A DNA stretch of 32,000 nt from Haloarcula limicola (GTDB lineage: Archaea; Halobacteriota; Halobacteria; Halobacteriales; Haloarculaceae). Within the stretch, counting starts at the first letter, position 1. Each line of letters opens with the position of its first letter. The notes under the pieces were generated by a model. The model searched no databases. It was not told the origin of the DNA and saw only the letters and a list, made by a program, of their open reading frames with translations. Positions 2,315-26,643 of the stretch are shown one piece after another. The DNA is taken from NCBI RefSeq assembly GCF_010119205.1, contig NZ_WRXM01000002.1, forward strand, positions 22,982 to 54,981, given 5' to 3'. A program made the position numbers and the translations under genes.

Positions 2315-5300
2315 CTACCGGTCGTCGTAGTCTCGTGCGTCGCAGTCCCAGCGGAAATCGCACTCGTCGCACGTTGCCTTGTCGGGGAGGTCGTCTTCGT
2401 CCCAGTCGTCCAGGTCGTCCCAGTCGTTGTGTTCGCGGACGTGCTCGAGTTCGGTTACCGTGTTCTCGAACCGGGACATCGCCGCTCGGATCTCACTCTC
2501 GGTGAAGTCTAATTCGAGTCGGGTGGCTTCCGGATCTTCCTCGCCGAGGAAGTACAGCACTGCACTGTCTGGGTACTCGTCTTCCTTCTCGGCGTAGAGC
2601 CCTGCGTAGACGAGCAGTTGTTCGCGGTAGTCCTGGAGGTACCCCCCTCCAGAATTCGGTCGCTGGCTCGCCTTGTAGTCGCAGAGCTTCGTGTGGCCTG
2701 CTTCGTCTGCGATCACGTCGGCGACTCCGGTGAGGATGAAGCTGCCAGCGTTACGCCGGAGTTTGCACTCGGTGTTGATGACCTGGGGGTACAGGTCCGG
2801 TCCGATTTGGGCGTTGAACCGCTTGACGTGTTGGAACACAGCGTTGACCGCGTCCTGCCCCATCGGCATGATCCGCTGGTCCCGGAGCGACTCTACGACA
2901 CTATCGAACTCGTCACGCAGTTTGCCCTCGTCGGGGGTTGTACCTTCGGCTACGCCGTCAACATCACCGTTGTAGTAGCGGTGTGCCCAGTCAAGTGTCT
3001 GGTGGACGGCTAGCCCAGCGAACAGCTGGGTCCCGCTCCCGGCGGCGAACTCGTGCTCGGTGTGGTACCCGTACTGTCGCTTGCACCGTCGGAACGAGAG
3101 CACGTCAGCGACGATCGAGTAGGTCCGACGGGTGTCGTCGGTGGAAGGCGGGCCGACCGTAGTTCCGTCGGGGGCGAGTTCGGCTTCCTGGTCCAGCCGC
3201 TGGTCTGCGTCGAACCAGTCGACACCGACTGGACCGCTGGCGTCAGCGCCGAGCGAAGGGAGCACCGTACTCCCGTCGGCCCCCCGGAGGTAGTAGTCAG
3301 TTCCCAGAAGCACAAGGTTGTCCTCTGCGCGCGAGTGCGCGACGTAGAACTGCCGGACTTGGTCCCGCTCGGCACGTGTGGGAACGTCCGTCGGTGGGGT
3401 ACAGTCGGTGTAGTCGCTGAGCAGGTCCGCTACTCGGGGGACCACCTCTCCGTCGTCTGTAACGTCGTAGTTCTTCTCTGCGGTCCGTTCCAAGCTCGCG
3501 AGGAAGACCACCGGAAACTCTAGGCCCTTGGCTTGATGGACCGTCATCACCTGGACGTGCCCGCTCGGGAAGGTGTCGTACTGGTCCTCCGGGTCGTCGA
3601 GACCTTTGCTCTGGAGGTACTGACCGAACGTCCAGTAGAAGTCGCTCAGAAACCGCACCGAGACGGTGTCGTACTCGTCGTGAGATGTGCGGGTGAGCTT
3701 TCGGTTCTCGGTCACGCCCTCCGCGATGCCCTCGAATGCCTCGAGAAGCTGGCTGAGCTTCCCCAGCCGCTTGGCGCGGTTGACGTGGCCGTCGTCTTTC
3801 GTCCACGTCGAGAACGGCTCGAAGGACCTGATCCGGTTGTAGAGGTCGACGGCGGAGACGTCGGCTACGCTGCCAGAGGGAGCACTTCGAATCCGGGCGG
3901 CTGTGACTTCGAGGTAGTTCGCGAGGTCCTTCGCGTCGTGTCGTTCAATCACGTCGTCCAGAGTGGTGAGCCACTCTTGGAAGTCATCCCCGAGCCCACC
4001 GTAGGGAAGCACGTTGTCTTCCGCCCACTGAAGGTCCGGGTCGAAACACACTGCTAGCGCTGCTAACATCGCCTGAACCTCCTCGTGCTGGACGAATCCC
4101 TTGTTCCGCGGGTTGTGTACCGGGATGTCGCGCGCCTCCAATGCGTTGACGCACTCCCCGACGAACGTCGTGTTGTCCCACTGCGGCCAGTATTCACGAG
4201 TACTGTGGGCTAGCAGTGCCACCTGGTTGAGGTCCTGCACGTAGCCTTCAGCGTGAAGTCGTTGGACTTGGTCAGCGAAGGCTGCCGCGGCCTGCGCTTT
4301 GTTGTCCTCCTTCAGGAGGTGGACGCTTGGGTGGTCGACGGCGTCACGTGCCGCGTTTAGTGGCTCCTTGCCCGGTGCACGGGCCCCAGTGACCTGCATC
4401 GTCGGGTAATAGCCGATGTGGCGGTTGACCCACTCGACGATCTCCGGACGGGAACGGTAGTTCCAGCGCAGTTGTTGCGTCTCGATTTCGTCTTGGTCGA
4501 TACCAAGGTAATCGGACAGACGTTCGGGAAACTCAATCAGACAGTCGACGGTCCCACCGCGGAACCGGTAGAGCGCCTGGTCGTCGTCCCCTACCACTAC
4601 TAACGTCGGGACCTGGTCCGGCATCAGCTCGGCGAGTCGGAAGTAGATCGCCTGCTGGAGGGGGTTCACGTCTTGGTACTCGTCAACAGCGATCCGCTGC
4701 AACGGTGGCTCCTCGCGTTCTGAGTCCCCTTGTGCGAACCGCTGGCCAGCCTCTGTGTCGAGAAACGCCAGGAACCGCTCCTGAAGTCGCGCGAAGTCAC
4801 ACCGCGACTCGTCCCGCAGTGTTGCTAGGTAGTCCCGGTACCCCTCGGCTAGCCGCCTGTACTCGAGTCGGTCGGACTCGGCGAGTGCTTCGACGTCGAC
4901 TCGCAGTTGCGAAAGTCGGTTGAACAACCGTTTCGCGGTGGTGGCCGCAGCCCCCTTCGAGCAGGTGCCGTCGTCGTTCATCCGGGGAACGACGTCTCGG
5001 AACGTGGCGACGTCACCGTCGGCGAGCACGTCGACGTACTCGCTGTGGCGGGCGATGAACATCTCCTGGGCGTCCTCGTCCAAGAGGTCGACGTTGCGGT
5101 AGTCGTCGAACCGGTAGTCGCGCATGATCTCGCCCCAAAGCTGGTGGCCAGTGCCCACGTGTAACTCGTCGACGGAGAACACGTCGTCGTAGCCGAGGGC
5201 GGCGAGATCGCGTTCCAGACGCTGCTCGAGGTTCTCGGCGGCCTTCTCAGTGAAGGTGGTGAGGATGATCCCACCGGGCGGGATGCCGTCCACTAGCAAC

Positions 5301-22233: not shown

Positions 22234-22348
22234 CCTCTTCCTTGCGCGGTTCCCGATCCGGTGGTAATTCCGCGTTCTCCAATGCATCTTCCTTCTCCTT
22301 CTTTGACCAGCCGCCGTAGCGCTCAGTCGAGACCCCGAAGTAAGCCAT
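22226..22348 (-). CDS. Micro-ORF a (40 aa)
   Basis: MAYFGVSTERYGGWSKKEKEDALENAELPPDREPRKEEDE*. It is the first member of the train and falls below the ORF-track length cutoff. Confidence 0.4.
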   Translation of the reverse strand: MAYFGVSTERYGGWSKKEKEDALENAELPPDREPRKEEDE

Positions 22349-22414
22349 TAGCGGCTAGTACGGAGCTCTAAGGTAAAGAAACAGGGGGAAGTGCCGAATC
22401 AGAATCCTAGCCGG

Positions 22415-22657
22415 TCACTCCTCTAACTCTTCATCAATACCACCATCATAGTTGATATCTGAATGCGCCTCCATCAGTTCCGCCCACTCATCACGGGTAA
22501 TACTGTTACTAACATCCTCCTCCGGAATGATTAGTAACTGATCGGCGCGGATACCCTCCCGGTGATCTATACGCAGCCAGTCGGGGTCGCTTTCCTCAAT
22601 TTCGTCAGTATCAGCGAACACTTCGGTGTGGTTCGATTTTATTGCTACTACGAGCAC
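22415..22657 (-). CDS. Hypothetical acidic protein (80 aa)
   Basis: GTG-initiated ORF with very acidic composition typical of halophile proteins. It lies downstream of the GCACA repeat array on the minus strand. Confidence 0.5.
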   Translation of the reverse strand: MLVVAIKSNHTEVFADTDEIEESDPDWLRIDHREGIRADQLLIIPEEDVSNSITRDEWAELMEAHSDINYDGGIDEELEE

Positions 22658-22730
22658 GATAACTCCGTCTCAGGGCTATTATACGAGTATTTCTCTATTT
22701 TATGGATTAGTATTATAGCATATTTTCACA

Positions 22731-22813
22731 GCACAAGCACCTCGCACATGCACATGTGCTCGGCACACAACACAATCACACCGCACATCTGCACGGCACA
22801 CTCTATCGGCACA
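22731..22813 (+). repeat. Iteron-like array: 7 same-orientation copies of GCACA (three as CGGCACA) with 13-bp phasing
   Basis: GCACA starts at 22731, 22744, 22750, 22763, 22783, 22796 and 22809, giving spacings of 13, 6, 13, 20, 13 and 13. The array includes the perfect palindrome GCACATGTGC at 22750-22759. An AT-rich tract at 22688-22729 (9 G/C of 42 by my count) abuts it. Confidence 0.65.
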
Positions 22814-23062
22814 TCCACTCCCGACTCCGGCACCTAACCCCCGCCAACGCCTTACATCGACACAATGACCAGCAACGACACCACCTATACCGTAACCATC
22901 TACACCGGCCCAAAATGGATCGCCGACGCCAAGGTAAAAATTGGAGAATGGATCGAGGAACGACGAAAACAATAGGTAGAGCCGGCTAGACCTGGTTCTC
23001 TCAACACGAAACCCGGGGGTTCGGCTTGAGGTGAGCCAATCTAAATCGATGTACTACCGACA

Positions 23063-23106
23063 GCACATGTACATTACACACTCACACGGCACATGCGCTC
23101 AGCACA
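23063..23106 (+). repeat. Second GCACA cluster (3 copies) in the same orientation and phase
   Basis: GCACA starts at 23063, 23089 (as CGGCACA) and 23102, giving spacings of 26 and 13. Together with the first cluster it brackets ~250 bp containing only a doubtful 36-aa ORF (22865..22975). Confidence 0.55.
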
Positions 23107-23137
23107 AACATAGAACACATCTCACCTCGGATGTGGA

Positions 23138-23401
23138 TCAGAGGTAATTGGTCAGTGACTGGCGCTCGCCGTCAGGAGCTTCAATATCTACACTGTCCTC
23201 GTCTCGGTGAAACTGGTACCCTCGTTTTCGAAGCATCAACGTCACCATAGCCTCCGTACTGAGAGACTCCATATCTTCGATATCACCGCGCTTATAGGAT
23301 GCTGCAAGCCGCAACAATTGCTCGTCACTAGCATCATTGAGTGTCTCGTGGTCGAGCTCAGCCAATCTTAACAGATCGTTTGCTGGGTCGGTATCATCCA
23401 T
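23138..23401 (-). CDS. Hypothetical acidic protein (87 aa)
   Basis: I prefer the ATG at 23401 (MDDTDPANDLLRLAELDHE...). The track's extension to 23479 adds a hydrophobic and basic leader. Confidence 0.5.
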   Translation of the reverse strand: MDDTDPANDLLRLAELDHETLNDASDEQLLRLAASYKRGDIEDMESLSTEAMVTLMLRKRGYQFHRDEDSVDIEAPDGERQSLTNYL

Positions 23402-23504
23402 CGTGGGTGTGATTATTATTAGAAGTATCCAAAAGCTTGCTGATTGGTCATATCTCCTACTACAAAGAGGAGATCGCAATCTTTCAATATAGCAATTTCA
23501 AGTG

Positions 23505-24749
23505 TCAGGGCCGGTACTTCTTTTCTGCTTCTTTTATGTCCTCCTTCCTGAAGCGCAAGTATTCGCGGGTCTGAGTGATATCCGAATGTCCTAATAAATC
23601 CGACAAGAAAACAATCGGCATACCATTCCGAACGCGATGCACAGCAAACGAGTGCCGGAACGCATGCGCAGTGACGGTATTGCGTGTCGTACCCGCTGCA
23701 TTCGGCCCCTTATCCACTTTCGCTTGGATACCCGCTTCCTCAGCGTAGTCATGAATAATCTCTGTCGGGCGATTCGGATGCAGATCTTCGCTTGATTCAC
23801 CAAGAATCAAATAGTCGGACTCATTCGCACGCAAATACCCATTCCTCGTGCCTCCTTCCAACCACTTCTTCAGCGTTCGCTCCACCGACGGTGGATAGTA
23901 CACCATTCGATCTTCGTAACCATCCTGCTTGGCCGTCTCAATCTTAATCGACCGATCCTTCCCACCCCCGCCGTTGTCGTCATCCCCATTAAAGTCGGTA
24001 ATATCACTCACTCGAATGTTCACCAGCTCTTGTGCCCTAACACCGCAATTCCACAAGATTTGAACGATGAGCAAATCACGAGTATCATCGATCACATCCA
24101 GCAATTTCTCGTAATCCTCGATCTCAATATACCGAATCTCCTTGTACGTTTCCGATCGCGATACCCCCATATCGAATTCATCCCGCTGCACCGGATTCTC
24201 GTCAACAACACCCTTCTTCACCAGATATCCAAACAACGCAGAGAGATCATACACTCGGTTCTGGACCGACCCCTCTGAATACCCATGCAGTAGTTGATGA
24301 TCGACAAAATCCTCAACTGCAATCATCGTCGGTTCGAGAAAGTCTACGTTCTGCACGAGACTGTACACCATGTAGTGTCGATACGCGCTTTGCCGGTTCT
24401 GGAGTGTCTGCTTCGAGAAGTGCGCCTTCACCCGTAAGTCGAGATAGTTCTGCACCGGATCGGGGAAATCGAAATCAACCTCATTGAACTCTTCCCGCTC
24501 TTCCTTAGTCGGATTAGTAGATTCGAACCGTTCAAGTCGCTGCTCTAAGTGATTCCGGATGGGTGTCGGGAGCGTGATGTACTCCTTGAGCTCGTCCAGA
24601 TCTCGTACTCGTTTCGCGCGAGCACCGAGTATGGTGTACGGGCCGCGAGGATCGTCGTCTGAGACGGGAGGTTCGTCCGGTTTTTTAGCGGTCTTAGGCA
24701 CTGTCCTCACCCGATGAATCGTTGGATCGGTCGAACTTCTCCAACTCAC
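23505..24749 (-). CDS. Tyrosine recombinase / phage-type integrase (XerC/D-like), up to 414 aa
   Basis: C-terminal catalytic signature: GVRAQEL (Arg), AHAFRHSFAVH (HxxR) and LLGHSDITQTREYL (His...Tyr). An N-terminal SAM-like core-binding region is present. The start is uncertain: the GTG at 24749 overlaps the upstream gene by 56 nt, and GTGs at ~24710 and 24701 are alternatives. Confidence 0.9.
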   Translation of the reverse strand: MSWRSSTDPTIHRVRTVPKTAKKPDEPPVSDDDPRGPYTILGARAKRVRDLDELKEYITLPTPIRNHLEQRLERFESTNPTKEEREEFNEVDFDFPDPVQNYLDLRVKAHFSKQTLQNRQSAYRHYMVYSLVQNVDFLEPTMIAVEDFVDHQLLHGYSEGSVQNRVYDLSALFGYLVKKGVVDENPVQRDEFDMGVSRSETYKEIRYIEIEDYEKLLDVIDDTRDLLIVQILWNCGVRAQELVNIRVSDITDFNGDDDNGGGGKDRSIKIETAKQDGYEDRMVYYPPSVERTLKKWLEGGTRNGYLRANESDYLILGESSEDLHPNRPTEIIHDYAEEAGIQAKVDKGPNAAGTTRNTVTAHAFRHSFAVHRVRNGMPIVFLSDLLGHSDITQTREYLRFRKEDIKEAEKKYRP

Positions 24750-25071
24750 CCTCGATCAGTTCACGGTGGAACCCGACTACCTCGTCAACGGTCTCCTCGT
24801 CGAGCTGCTGGTTTTCCAGCGTGTCGAGCGCTTCGTTCGCCATCGCCATCTTCGCTTGTAGACTACTGAATTCGTCGAGAATGTCGTAGAGCATACTCTC
24901 GACCTCGTCCGGAACACCACTTTGTCCTTTGTCGCGTGATATTTGCTCGGAAACAGACTTCCGCACGAGATCTGAGACGTTCTTGTATTTACGCCCCGCT
25001 TCCTCATGTTCGATGAAGTTCTCCCAGTCGGTTTTTTGCCCGTCGTCAACGTGGATATGCATACGAGCCAT
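24694..25071 (-). CDS. Small acidic protein (125 aa), possible RHH-type regulator/excisionase partner of the integrase
   Basis: ATG at 25071 (MARMHIHVDDGQKTDWENFIE...). The N-terminus has a beta-strand-then-helix pattern like CopG/RHH proteins (weak), followed by a coiled-coil-like middle. The track's 254-aa version extends antisense into rfcL and is rejected. Confidence 0.6.
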   Translation of the reverse strand: MARMHIHVDDGQKTDWENFIEHEEAGRKYKNVSDLVRKSVSEQISRDKGQSGVPDEVESMLYDILDEFSSLQAKMAMANEALDTLENQQLDEETVDEVVGFHRELIEGELEKFDRSNDSSGEDSA

Positions 25072-25128
25072 GCAACGGAAATACCGTGAAGCCGTAATCA
25101 ATCTTGTGTATAGGGGGCACACGATCTG

Positions 25129-26643
25129 ATGGACTGGACGGAGAAGTACCGCCCGAGTACGCTCTCGGAGGTACGGGGAAACAACAAGGCCCGCGACGCC
25201 CTGAAGGAGTGGGCCGACACCTGGGAGAGCCACCGCGAGGCGATCATCCTCCACGGGACGCCCGGGGTGGGCAAGACCTCCGCCGCGCACGCGCTGGCGA
25301 ACGACATGGGCTGGCCGACCATCGAACTCAACGCCAGCGACTCCCGGACGAAGGACGTCATCGACCGGGTGGCCGGCGAAGCCGCCAAGTCCGGCACGCT
25401 GACCGCCGGGGGGCAGGGGCGTCGCCTCGTCATCATGGACGAAGCGGACAACATCCACGGTAACGCCGACCGCGGGGGCGCACGCGCCGTCTCCTCGCTC
25501 GTGAAGGAGGCCGGCCAGCCGATGATCCTCATCGCCAACGAGTTCTACGAGATGTCGAACTCGCTTCGCAACAACTGTCAGGACGTCGAGTTCTCGGCGG
25601 TGCAGAAGCGCTCGATCGTCCCCGTCCTGCGAGACATCTGTCGGAAAGAGGGCGTCGAGTATACCGACGCCGTTATCGAGGACATCGCCGAGCAGAACAG
25701 CGGCGACCTGCGGGGAGCCATCAAGGACCTGCAGGCCACCGCCGAGGGCCGCGACCGTATCGAGGCCGACGACTACGTCTCCGGCGAGCGTGACACCTCG
25801 GAGGGCATCTTCGAGTACCTCGACGTCGTGCTCAAGGAAGGCTCAGCCGAGGAGGCGCTGAAGGCCAGTTACGACGTCGACGAGACGCCGGACGACCTCA
25901 TCAACTGGATCGAGGACAACATGCCCAAGGACTACGAGGGCGCGGAACTCGCGCGGGCTTACGGCTTCCTCTCGAACGCCGATAAGTGGCTGGGCCGCGT
26001 ACGGGCGACGCAGAACTACTCGTTCTGGCGGTACGCCGGGGACAACATGACCGCCGGCGTCGCCGCCGCCCGTGACGGCAAGAAGGGCGGCTGGACCCGC
26101 TACGGGCCGCCGAGCTACTGGTCGAAACTCGGCCGCTCGAAGGGGGCGCGCAAGACGCGGGACCACATCGCCCAGCAGATCGCCGTCATCGACGGCGTCT
26201 CCATGCGGACCGCTCGTCGGGAGATCATGCCGTTCCTCGCGACGATGACCCACCACTGCACGAACCGCGACCTGACGGTGGCGATGGCCGCCACCTACGA
26301 GCTGGAGGCCGAGCACGTCTCCTTCGTCACCGGGTCGGGCGAGGACACGAACAAGGTCCAGTCCATCGTCGAGGACGCCGAACGCCGCCGCGAGGAGGCC
26401 GCCGTGGAACACTCCGGCGGCGCGTTCGAGGGGGCGACCGTGGACGGCGGCGCAGACGTCGGCGGCGATGGCAGCGAGACGACCGACACCGCCGACGAGA
26501 GTGGATCGGAGGGGGGCGACGGGCAGTCGACGCTCGGCGACGAGACGACGGCAGCCGACGCGACGGCGGACGCGGTGGAGTCGTCCGACGGCGAGGCGGC
26601 CGAGGACGACGACCAGCAGTCCGGCCTCTCCGATTTCATGTAG
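25129..26643 (+). CDS. rfcL: Replication factor C large subunit (504 aa)
   Basis: MDWTEKYRPSTLSEVRGN is the RFC box II-like N-terminus. HGTPGVGKTS is Walker A and LVIMDEADNI is Walker B. An acidic C-terminal tail ends in QQSGLSDFM, a PIP-box-like QxxLxxF motif. Confidence 0.92.
   Translation: MDWTEKYRPSTLSEVRGNNKARDALKEWADTWESHREAIILHGTPGVGKTSAAHALANDMGWPTIELNASDSRTKDVIDRVAGEAAKSGTLTAGGQGRRLVIMDEADNIHGNADRGGARAVSSLVKEAGQPMILIANEFYEMSNSLRNNCQDVEFSAVQKRSIVPVLRDICRKEGVEYTDAVIEDIAEQNSGDLRGAIKDLQATAEGRDRIEADDYVSGERDTSEGIFEYLDVVLKEGSAEEALKASYDVDETPDDLINWIEDNMPKDYEGAELARAYGFLSNADKWLGRVRATQNYSFWRYAGDNMTAGVAAARDGKKGGWTRYGPPSYWSKLGRSKGARKTRDHIAQQIAVIDGVSMRTARREIMPFLATMTHHCTNRDLTVAMAATYELEAEHVSFVTGSGEDTNKVQSIVEDAERRREEAAVEHSGGAFEGATVDGGADVGGDGSETTDTADESGSEGGDGQSTLGDETTAADATADAVESSDGEAAEDDDQQSGLSDFM

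Follow-up and report, generated by a model that had tools for sequence, protein, structure and literature searches.

The question raised by a stretch of 32,000 nucleotides from Haloarcula limicola (contig NZ_WRXM01000002.1, positions 22,982 to 54,981; "the window" hereafter, meaning this whole stretch) is the function of an array of short direct repeats that occupies some 480 bp between small genes and adjoins an AT-rich tract. An earlier note, made from the letters of the window alone, had offered two readings of this array, i.e. a replication-origin-like element, or a set of binding sites for a regulator or, as arm-type sites, for an integrase. The analysis described here sustains the second of these, in that the array is non-random and its architecture, strand and position are conserved, whilst the replication origin receives no specific support. 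The array is most likely, as judged by sequence comparison, a protein-binding element of the integration module of the genomic island in which it lies rather than a replication origin.

Ten plus-strand copies of GCACA form two clusters, with starts at 22731, 22744, 22750, 22763, 22783, 22796 and 22809 in cluster 1 and at 23063, 23089 and 23102 in cluster 2; the start-to-start spacings, recounted exactly, are 13, 6, 13, 20, 13 and 13 in the former and 26 and 13 in the latter. Four copies extend to CGGCACA (22761, 22794, 22807 and 23087), the palindrome GCACATGTGC at 22750-22759 is perfect and correctly placed, and the adjoining tract at 22688-22729, at 79% A+T, is the most AT-rich 42-mer of the window. 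All of these features had been described in the earlier note, every coordinate of which proved correct, and the enrichment of GCACA that it had put forward as a check gave counts, for window and genome alike, far beyond chance. Half of the 20 plus-strand copies in the window fall within the 480 bp, where TGTGC occurs once, against an expectation of 0.155 per 480 bp from the island background (Poisson P about 2e-15), and of 5000 simulations under a first-order Markov model fitted to the CA-rich array region itself, only 1 contained ten or more copies. Same-strand clusters of more than four GCACA per 120 bp are found at the array only in the whole 3.9-Mb genome. Sites with at most one mismatch to GCACATGTGC number four in the window, all inside the array region, and 37 genome-wide, of which only the four of the array lie closer than 500 bp to one another.

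The repeats are also phased. Within clusters, 14 of the 24 pairwise GCACA distances are divisible by 13 (P about 0.003, corrected for periods 6-22), and each cluster shows peaks of base autocorrelation at lags 13 and 26. With the pentamer relaxed to NCACA, cluster 1 becomes a register of seven slots from 22731 to 22809, six of them filled, accompanied by a second register at a 6-bp offset (22750, 22763 and 22776), and cluster 2 becomes five in-register units (23063, 23076, 23089, 23102 and 23115). Strand asymmetry is extreme in cluster 1 (16 CAC vs 1 GTG). The unit consensus is GCACA-t-n-CAC-AC-n, in which three positions are near-uninformative and five are conserved in 11 of 12 units, with information content distributed across most of the 13 bp. 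A 41-nt segment is common to the two clusters at 73% identity, and the program TRF finds CACATG weakly repeated at period 6 (22727-22756). These counts confirm an array that is real, phased at 13 bp and found nowhere else in the genome.

The array lies in an island of low GC content that extends, on GC profiles, from 13.0 kb to 48.1 kb of the contig (C2), its left 10 kb being beyond the window. An exact copy of the 21-bp attachment (att) core ATGGACTGGACGGAGAAGTAC, attR of which coincides with the beginning of rfcL, is present at C2:12999-13019 outside the window (attL); since this perfect repeat marks both ends, the island is identified as a 35.1-kb integrative element in the 5' end of rfcL, an essential clamp-loader gene at whose start it is inserted and to which it supplies the upstream promoter region. 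From this end the order on the minus strand is a gene for a protein resembling ribbon-helix-helix (RHH) proteins, a tyrosine integrase gene (int), orf87, the array, the AT-rich tract, orf80 and a train of micro open reading frames (ORFs). Motifs of the array type recur in inverted orientation in the att arms, where GCACAC ends 7 nt before the attR core and TGTGTGTG starts 7 nt past the attL core, and pairs of TGTG and CACA are present at the same att junction in three other genomes (G010, G145 and G375). The occurrence of this motif beside the att core hints at a protein of the module that would recognise TGTG-type cores, the pattern across the family being inconsistent and no proof of it.

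To place the array in context, related elements were compared. A search of 400 Halobacteria genomes with the integrase gave ten loci (L083-L092), with integrases 33-47% identical to that of the window, and these together with the window and a metagenome contig, L094, make up the comparison set of 12 loci. By tblastn all ten loci have the same arrangement of rfcL followed by an integrase on the opposite strand, and a homologue of the RHH-like gene precedes int in eight of them; with L094 such homologues precede int in at least nine relatives. The rfcL start thus appears to have been targeted for integration repeatedly, in several haloarchaeal families. The RHH-like gene was also seen before int on the metagenome contigs L094-L096, and the rfcL islands each end at a sharp junction of high with low GC content.

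Within this set the array recurs in two elements. L094, a 3-kb contig from a hypersaline metagenome that was reached by searching with the RHH-like protein, encodes the closest known relative of the integrase (71% identical) and carries all five of its TGTGA pentamers in one array at 1974, 1987, 2000, 2006 and 2013 (spacings 13, 13, 6 and 7), beginning 224 nt past the int stop codon; a TATA-like box and a gene on the same strand follow about 90 bp downstream of the array. In the second, locus L083 of genome G081 (integrase about 45% identical), TGTG occurs at 3022, 3029, 3035, 3037, 3042, 3055, 3062 and 3068 (spacings 7, 6, 2, 5, 13, 7 and 6), with a strict 13-bp register at 3029, 3042, 3055 and 3068; this array begins 30 nt past the int stop codon, in the 95 bp that separate two convergent genes, where no AT-rich tract is present. 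A motif-blind scan of the 12 loci for 5-mers that recur at least three times at a fixed interval returned 13-bp runs in the window and L094 only, G081 being missed as its 13-bp register is that of a 4-mer, TGTG. At the array of each of the three loci, 13 is the top autocorrelation lag (0.56-0.58) among those that are not multiples of three, i.e. non-codon lags. Local alignment of the three intergenic regions places the best matches within the arrays, and a core common to all three, TGTGATTGTGnTGTGTG, matches at 16 of 17 nt between the window and L094 and with a 1-nt gap between the window and G081.

A maximum-likelihood tree of all 12 integrases groups the three array-bearing elements in a clade with 100/100 support, apart from the nine other rfcL-targeting relatives, and the path from the window to G081 amounts to about 1.4 changes per site. 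The N-terminal integrase motif DDDPRGPY is likewise found in these three alone among the 12 loci (window about 24635-24658, minus strand; L094 near 608; L083 near 1953). No TGTG array is present within 900 nt of int in eight of the nine more distant relatives, the exception being G251, in which a weak, unphased TGTG-rich stretch (7 TGTG in 60 bp, without lag-13 signal) accompanies arrays of other motifs at 11-bp spacing. The genes that neighbour the array differ: the window has orf87 and orf80, L094 an unrelated 106-aa gene, and G081 a convergent zinc-ribbon gene; as these are non-homologous, the array appears to travel with the int module and not with a cargo promoter. Its retention where everything else except the int operon has been replaced is therefore the signature expected of a functional cis-element of the recombination module. 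The earlier note had listed a lack of conservation in related elements among the outcomes that would speak against it; the array is, on the contrary, found in the two sole close relatives that we identified. Wider genome searches, covering 232 genomes of the host family and 257 of the family of G081, gave no further close relative, and searches of genome, metagenome and viral collections for related loci, from the integrase or from a two-sequence alignment, recovered distant integrases only, peptide seeds performing poorly. A second att copy was not found in G081 (23-mer with up to three mismatches; short BLAST).

The array is phased, genome-unique and conserved with its integrase clade, and the same motif flanks the att core. 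The reading that we favour, tentatively and with slightly less than even confidence, is that it provides a multi-copy protein-binding platform for the recombination module (RHH-like gene plus integrase) of this clade of rfcL-inserting islands; that a protein binds, which protein this would be and what its binding would bring about are points that we infer from the comparisons above. Each 13-bp unit has one strong TGTG(C/A) core on the integrase-sense strand, often with a second TGTG 6-7 bp further on, and a small DNA-binding protein would occupy these units head-to-tail, copy after copy. Neither 13 bp nor 6.5 bp coincides with the helical repeat, so the bound copies would be expected to wrap or spiral around the DNA as a filament. 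The likeliest binder would be a protein conserved in the module, i.e. the RHH-like/coiled-coil protein or the integrase, and the likeliest role would be architectural or regulatory, serving integration and excision or the expression of the int operon (by e.g. autoregulation or insulation); in the island of the window the array may additionally control the orf80 promoter.

Several observations weigh against this proposal. Relatives that carry int, mostly together with the RHH-like gene, have no TGTG array in eight of nine cases and a weak one in G251, so that neither protein can generally need such an array. In L094 and G081, the sequence adjacent to the att core is without the array motif and has a common, different element instead. 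The distance from array to att core is 2.0-2.4 kb, with the int operon between, which is far beyond the classical arm-type range. The assignment of the protein encoded at 24694-25071 to the RHH proteins is weak; it relies on the name given in its source to a 64%-identical homologue, on the pattern of predicted secondary structure and on sub-threshold PDB matches (profile E about 0.6-0.9), the AlphaFold2 (AF2) model has a pLDDT of 64, and Pfam contains no match. Finally, the array-bearing elements number only three, one of which is a 3-kb metagenome contig; being kin, they are worth about one or two independent observations, and GT/CA-rich sequence of low complexity can partly renew itself by slippage.

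The favoured platform may be compared with characterised systems. In phages lambda, L5, P2 and 186, arm-type integrase sites and the binding arrays of the excisionases Xis, Cox and Apl comprise 2-7 units within about 150 bp of the core. The haloarchaeal array resembles these in that direct repeats are tied to a tyrosine integrase module, a related motif lies beside the core in both arms, and head-to-tail binding is expected; it differs in its 2.0-2.4 kb distance from the core, with the int operon between, and in its at least 12 units. A version of the proposal in which a DNA loop would bridge the distal array to the att-core motifs, bound by the clade-specific N-terminal region of the integrase or by the RHH-like/coiled-coil protein, we consider rather unlikely. 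The term "arm-type" is absent from a 2021 review of archaeal tyrosine recombinases, which states that no helper or directionality factor is required by the archaeal integrases so far characterised (PMC8371274). The SNJ2 integrase does work with small DNA-binding and coiled-coil accessory proteins (Orf2 and Orf3) of its own operon (PMC5861418), and the SNJ2 repressor Orf4 recognises a palindromic operator beside a TATA box (PMC10123103). The present island is similar in being a haloarchaeal integrative element whose int is co-oriented with, and overlaps, a small DNA-binding/coiled-coil gene, and in having a palindrome near TATA-like boxes; SNJ2 differs in targeting a tRNA gene and in having a single 16-18-bp palindrome upstream of its operon, no phased array being described for it, and a phiH1-type repressor gene was not found among the neighbouring ORFs.

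A further parallel is offered by plasmid pSM19035, where dimers of the RHH protein omega, one per repeat, bind 7-10 contiguous 7-bp WATCACW repeats cooperatively, off helical phase, as spiral filaments (PMC9499535). Both systems have many short, contiguous and mostly co-oriented repeats with a GTGA/TCAC-type core and an RHH-like gene near the array, the L094 unit TGTGATT fits the reverse complement of WATCACW, and TGTG recurs at 6/7-bp sub-spacing in parts of all three arrays, many units having only one core per 13 bp. The array of the window is, unlike those of pSM19035, archaeal, not accompanied by ParA, built on a 13-bp period with 6/7-bp sub-spacing rather than on strict 7 bp, and placed past an operon rather than over a promoter. 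The array is of a known kind, phased short repeats of the protein-binding type, and in its defining features matches none of the ORB, Rep-iteron, lambda arm, RHH-ParB and phiH1-operator families.

Other explanations have to be set against the favoured platform. That the repeats are an operator or upstream activating sequence (UAS) array for cargo promoters, with which an island regulator (e.g. orf87, orf80 or a micro-ORF product) would switch the orf80 operon, perhaps together with a divergent transcript on the plus strand, is unlikely, if worth serious consideration. The AT-rich tract is most simply the putative orf80 promoter region, and beside it a further minus-strand TATAATA (22677-22683) precedes the orf80 GTG by about 23 nt; TATA-like boxes lie 5-20 bp from the end of cluster 1 and 20-60 bp from GCACATGTGC, the four palindrome-like sites would suit an operator, and both the position of the L094 array relative to its TATA-like box and the repeat arrays of G251, directly upstream of duplicated TATA-like elements, would fit as well. 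However, the G081 array lies between convergent stop codons with no nearby promoter, the array core is conserved where adjoining genes are unrelated in three elements, and no gene of a known repressor family, phiH1-type included, was detected among the neighbouring small ORFs. An iteron-type origin of the excised island, with an unrecognised initiator bound to the repeats and melting of the AT-rich tract, is improbable. Phased same-strand repeats do adjoin the most AT-rich 42-mer of the window, family-less island ORFs could hide a novel initiator, and GCACA-type 13-bp tandem repeats occur in many unrelated viral contigs, which shows only that the layout exists elsewhere. Nevertheless, the earlier statement that no initiator gene adjoins the array is borne out and extends to the whole island, none of whose ORFs across the 35 kb matches Rep, Orc/Cdc6, MCM, primase, helicase-initiator or ParA families in Pfam, PHROGs or NCBIfam; the left third (C2:13.0-23.0 kb) likewise has no replication gene, second integrase or tRNA gene, and of nine Cdc6_C matches genome-wide none is in the window or island, the nearest on the contig being at C2:441589. 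Haloarchaeal origins have origin recognition boxes (ORBs) of 20-40 bp, inverted around an unwinding element, with a G-string end and beside orc/cdc6 (PMC3528665, PMC4010727). The array shares with them repeats beside an AT-rich intergenic stretch, but by the criteria of PMC3528665 its 13-bp units are not inverted ORBs with G-strings, being direct repeats that all lie on the same strand and are free of G-runs; it has no orc/cdc6 neighbour, and G5/C5 elements occur only at 22838-22842 and 23015-23019, on either side of a region that is not AT-rich. The tract itself is only 42 bp long and, extended to 100 bp, has 66% A+T, equal to another intergenic region; the G081 array in its 95-bp convergent gap has none, and, whereas classical iterons measure 19-22 bp, a 13-bp period does not keep helical phase.

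An action at the level of RNA, whereby a GU-rich (UGUG) tract in the 3' untranslated region of the int operon would serve 3'-end formation, mRNA stability or an RNA-binding protein, is quite improbable. The array does lie on the sense strand past the last gene of the int operon in all three elements (5, 30 and 224 nt past the stop codon), a hairpin with a T-rich tail past the orf87 stop codon overlaps cluster 2, and the strict strand asymmetry would fit a strand-specific function. Against this, folding of either strand is not significantly better than that of shuffled sequence (z -0.5 and -1.7), Rfam has no match for the array region, T-runs of the archaeal terminator type are not present within the arrays, and 13-bp phasing with palindromic sub-sites is a feature of double-stranded DNA recognition. 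A centromere-like partition site of the excised circle, akin to RHH-ParB heptad arrays or plasmid parC iteron clusters, is very improbable: two same-strand clusters of short repeats with 6-7-bp sub-spacing do resemble the RHH-bound parS arrays of pSM19035, and an RHH-like gene is in the module, but the island has no ParA/Walker ATPase and no actin- or tubulin-like motor gene, and gives no sign of replicating as an episome. To the idea of a non-functional relic, i.e. a 13-bp (or CACATG) minisatellite that arose by slippage or duplication and has decayed, we attach equally little probability. The weak period-6 repeat, the 41-nt segment common to the clusters and the spread of information over most of the unit would be compatible with it; the array is, however, genome-unique, three unit positions are near-uninformative where five are conserved in 11 of 12, and the period, strand, position and 17-nt core persist over about 1.4 substitutions per site, other intergenic sequence being randomised.

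Some further candidates were considered and rejected. A Chi-like or restriction-avoidance cluster would leave the phasing unexplained, and GCACA has no genome-wide strand bias; transposon ends do not agree with the same orientation of the two clusters; and a CRISPR-like array was dropped because the units are too short and spacers are lacking. A scan of viral contigs for four phased GCACA gave 47 loci, mostly perfect 13-bp tandems in unrelated low-GC phages and giant viruses, which are uninformative about homology.

Coordinates of the array, the integration module and the surrounding features in the window
Feature	Position	Strand	Description
orf80	22415..22657	-	acidic protein; first minus-strand gene past the array
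AT-rich tract	22688..22729		79% A+T; TATA-like boxes on both strands
Cluster 1	22731..22821	-	seven 13-bp registers, six with NCACA (plus), i.e. TGTGN on the integrase-sense minus strand
Palindrome GCACATGTGC	22750..22759		one-mismatch copies at 22783, 23063 and 23089
Conserved 17-nt core TGTGATTGTGTTGTGTG (minus strand)	22764..22780	-	sole detectable DNA similarity among the three intergenic regions
Doubtful 36-aa ORF	22865..22975	+	between the clusters
Stem-loop	23000..23030		GC-rich palindromic centre CGAAACCCGGGGGTTCGG at 23008-23025; spacer between the clusters
Cluster 2	23063..23127	-	five 13-bp units; begins a few nt past the orf87 stop codon
Hairpin followed by T-rich stretch	23116..23135	-	terminator-like; directly past the orf87 stop codon; overlaps the last unit of cluster 2
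orf87	23138..23401	-	last gene of the RHH-int-orf87 string
Tyrosine integrase	23505..24749	-	annotated start 24701
125-aa RHH-like protein	24694..25071	-	RHH-like N-terminus, coiled-coil C-terminus; overlaps the int start
P-arm element TTGTGTATAGGGGGCACACGA	25104..25124		TGTGT and GCACA as an inverted pair around a TATA-like box
attR core ATGGACTGGACGGAGAAGTAC	25129..25149	+	first 21 nt of rfcL; perfect 21-bp direct repeat

The genes that flank the array in the window provide few leads. Homologues of orf87 and orf80 were found neither in the 400 Halobacteria genomes nor among 5.8 billion proteins, orf87 gave no lead in the protein atlas, and a second contig with both genes is identical in sequence (0 differences over 6264 nt). 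At the DNA level, a search of plasmid and phage collections and of 60 related genomes with 22300-23600 gave the self match alone. Sequencing runs of any kind were searched as well, and gave a single small DNA run with part of the region and no RNA run shown to contain it. The 36-aa ORF between the clusters was rightly called doubtful in the earlier note, having no family match, convincing promoter or counterpart in relatives. A look-alike of the stem-loop in the spacer, CCGACCCCCGGGG, is present at 1839-1858 of L094, between int and the array of that contig.

Repeats and small genes of other kinds were also seen past related integrases. In G081 the gene convergent with the integrase (L083 3086-3280, minus strand) encodes a 64-aa acidic, zinc-ribbon-like protein with two CxxC pairs, and its stop codon is 14 nt beyond the array. 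In G251 a long non-coding stretch past the integrase (L092 4990-5650, minus strand) contains ATTCCCC about seven times at 11-12 bp, TTGCCACACC three times and runs of ACGCAC, and two of its arrays end just upstream of duplicated promoter-like boxes of the form AGCAGGGGTATA(A/G)TATAT. In the near-identical islands of G101 and G023 (L089 3650-3720 and L091 3600-3670), a stretch rich in CAGCAC/CACAGCA abuts a tract of ATATAATATATAATAT about 650 bp past int, a layout like that of cluster 1 and its AT-rich tract with the motif in opposite orientation.

The island carries a number of defence-type genes, i.e. Dpd-like TGT enzymes, a BrxC/D-like ATPase, a MORC-like ATPase, a Cas4-like nuclease, a D12 methyltransferase and a UvrD-nuclease; its left third (C2:13.0-23.0 kb, locus L093) contains a D12-class adenine methyltransferase together with many unassigned ORFs. 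Given this large load of anti-virus genes, including a Dpd-like DNA-modification system, and the position of the island at the start of the essential rfcL, control of its excision and expression would bear on the stability of the genome and on how defence genes spread. The array is small and sharply bounded. A phased multi-site array inherited with the integrase operon, the motif of which recurs at the att core, suggests an additional layer of control in at least one clade of haloarchaeal integrases, in contrast to the description of characterised archaeal integrases as simple enzymes that require neither accessory sites nor directionality factors (PMC8371274). Should a looped complex form between the array and the att core, these would be the first arm-type or enhancer-like accessory sites described for an archaeal integrase, and would provide a means of controlling the direction or timing of recombination.

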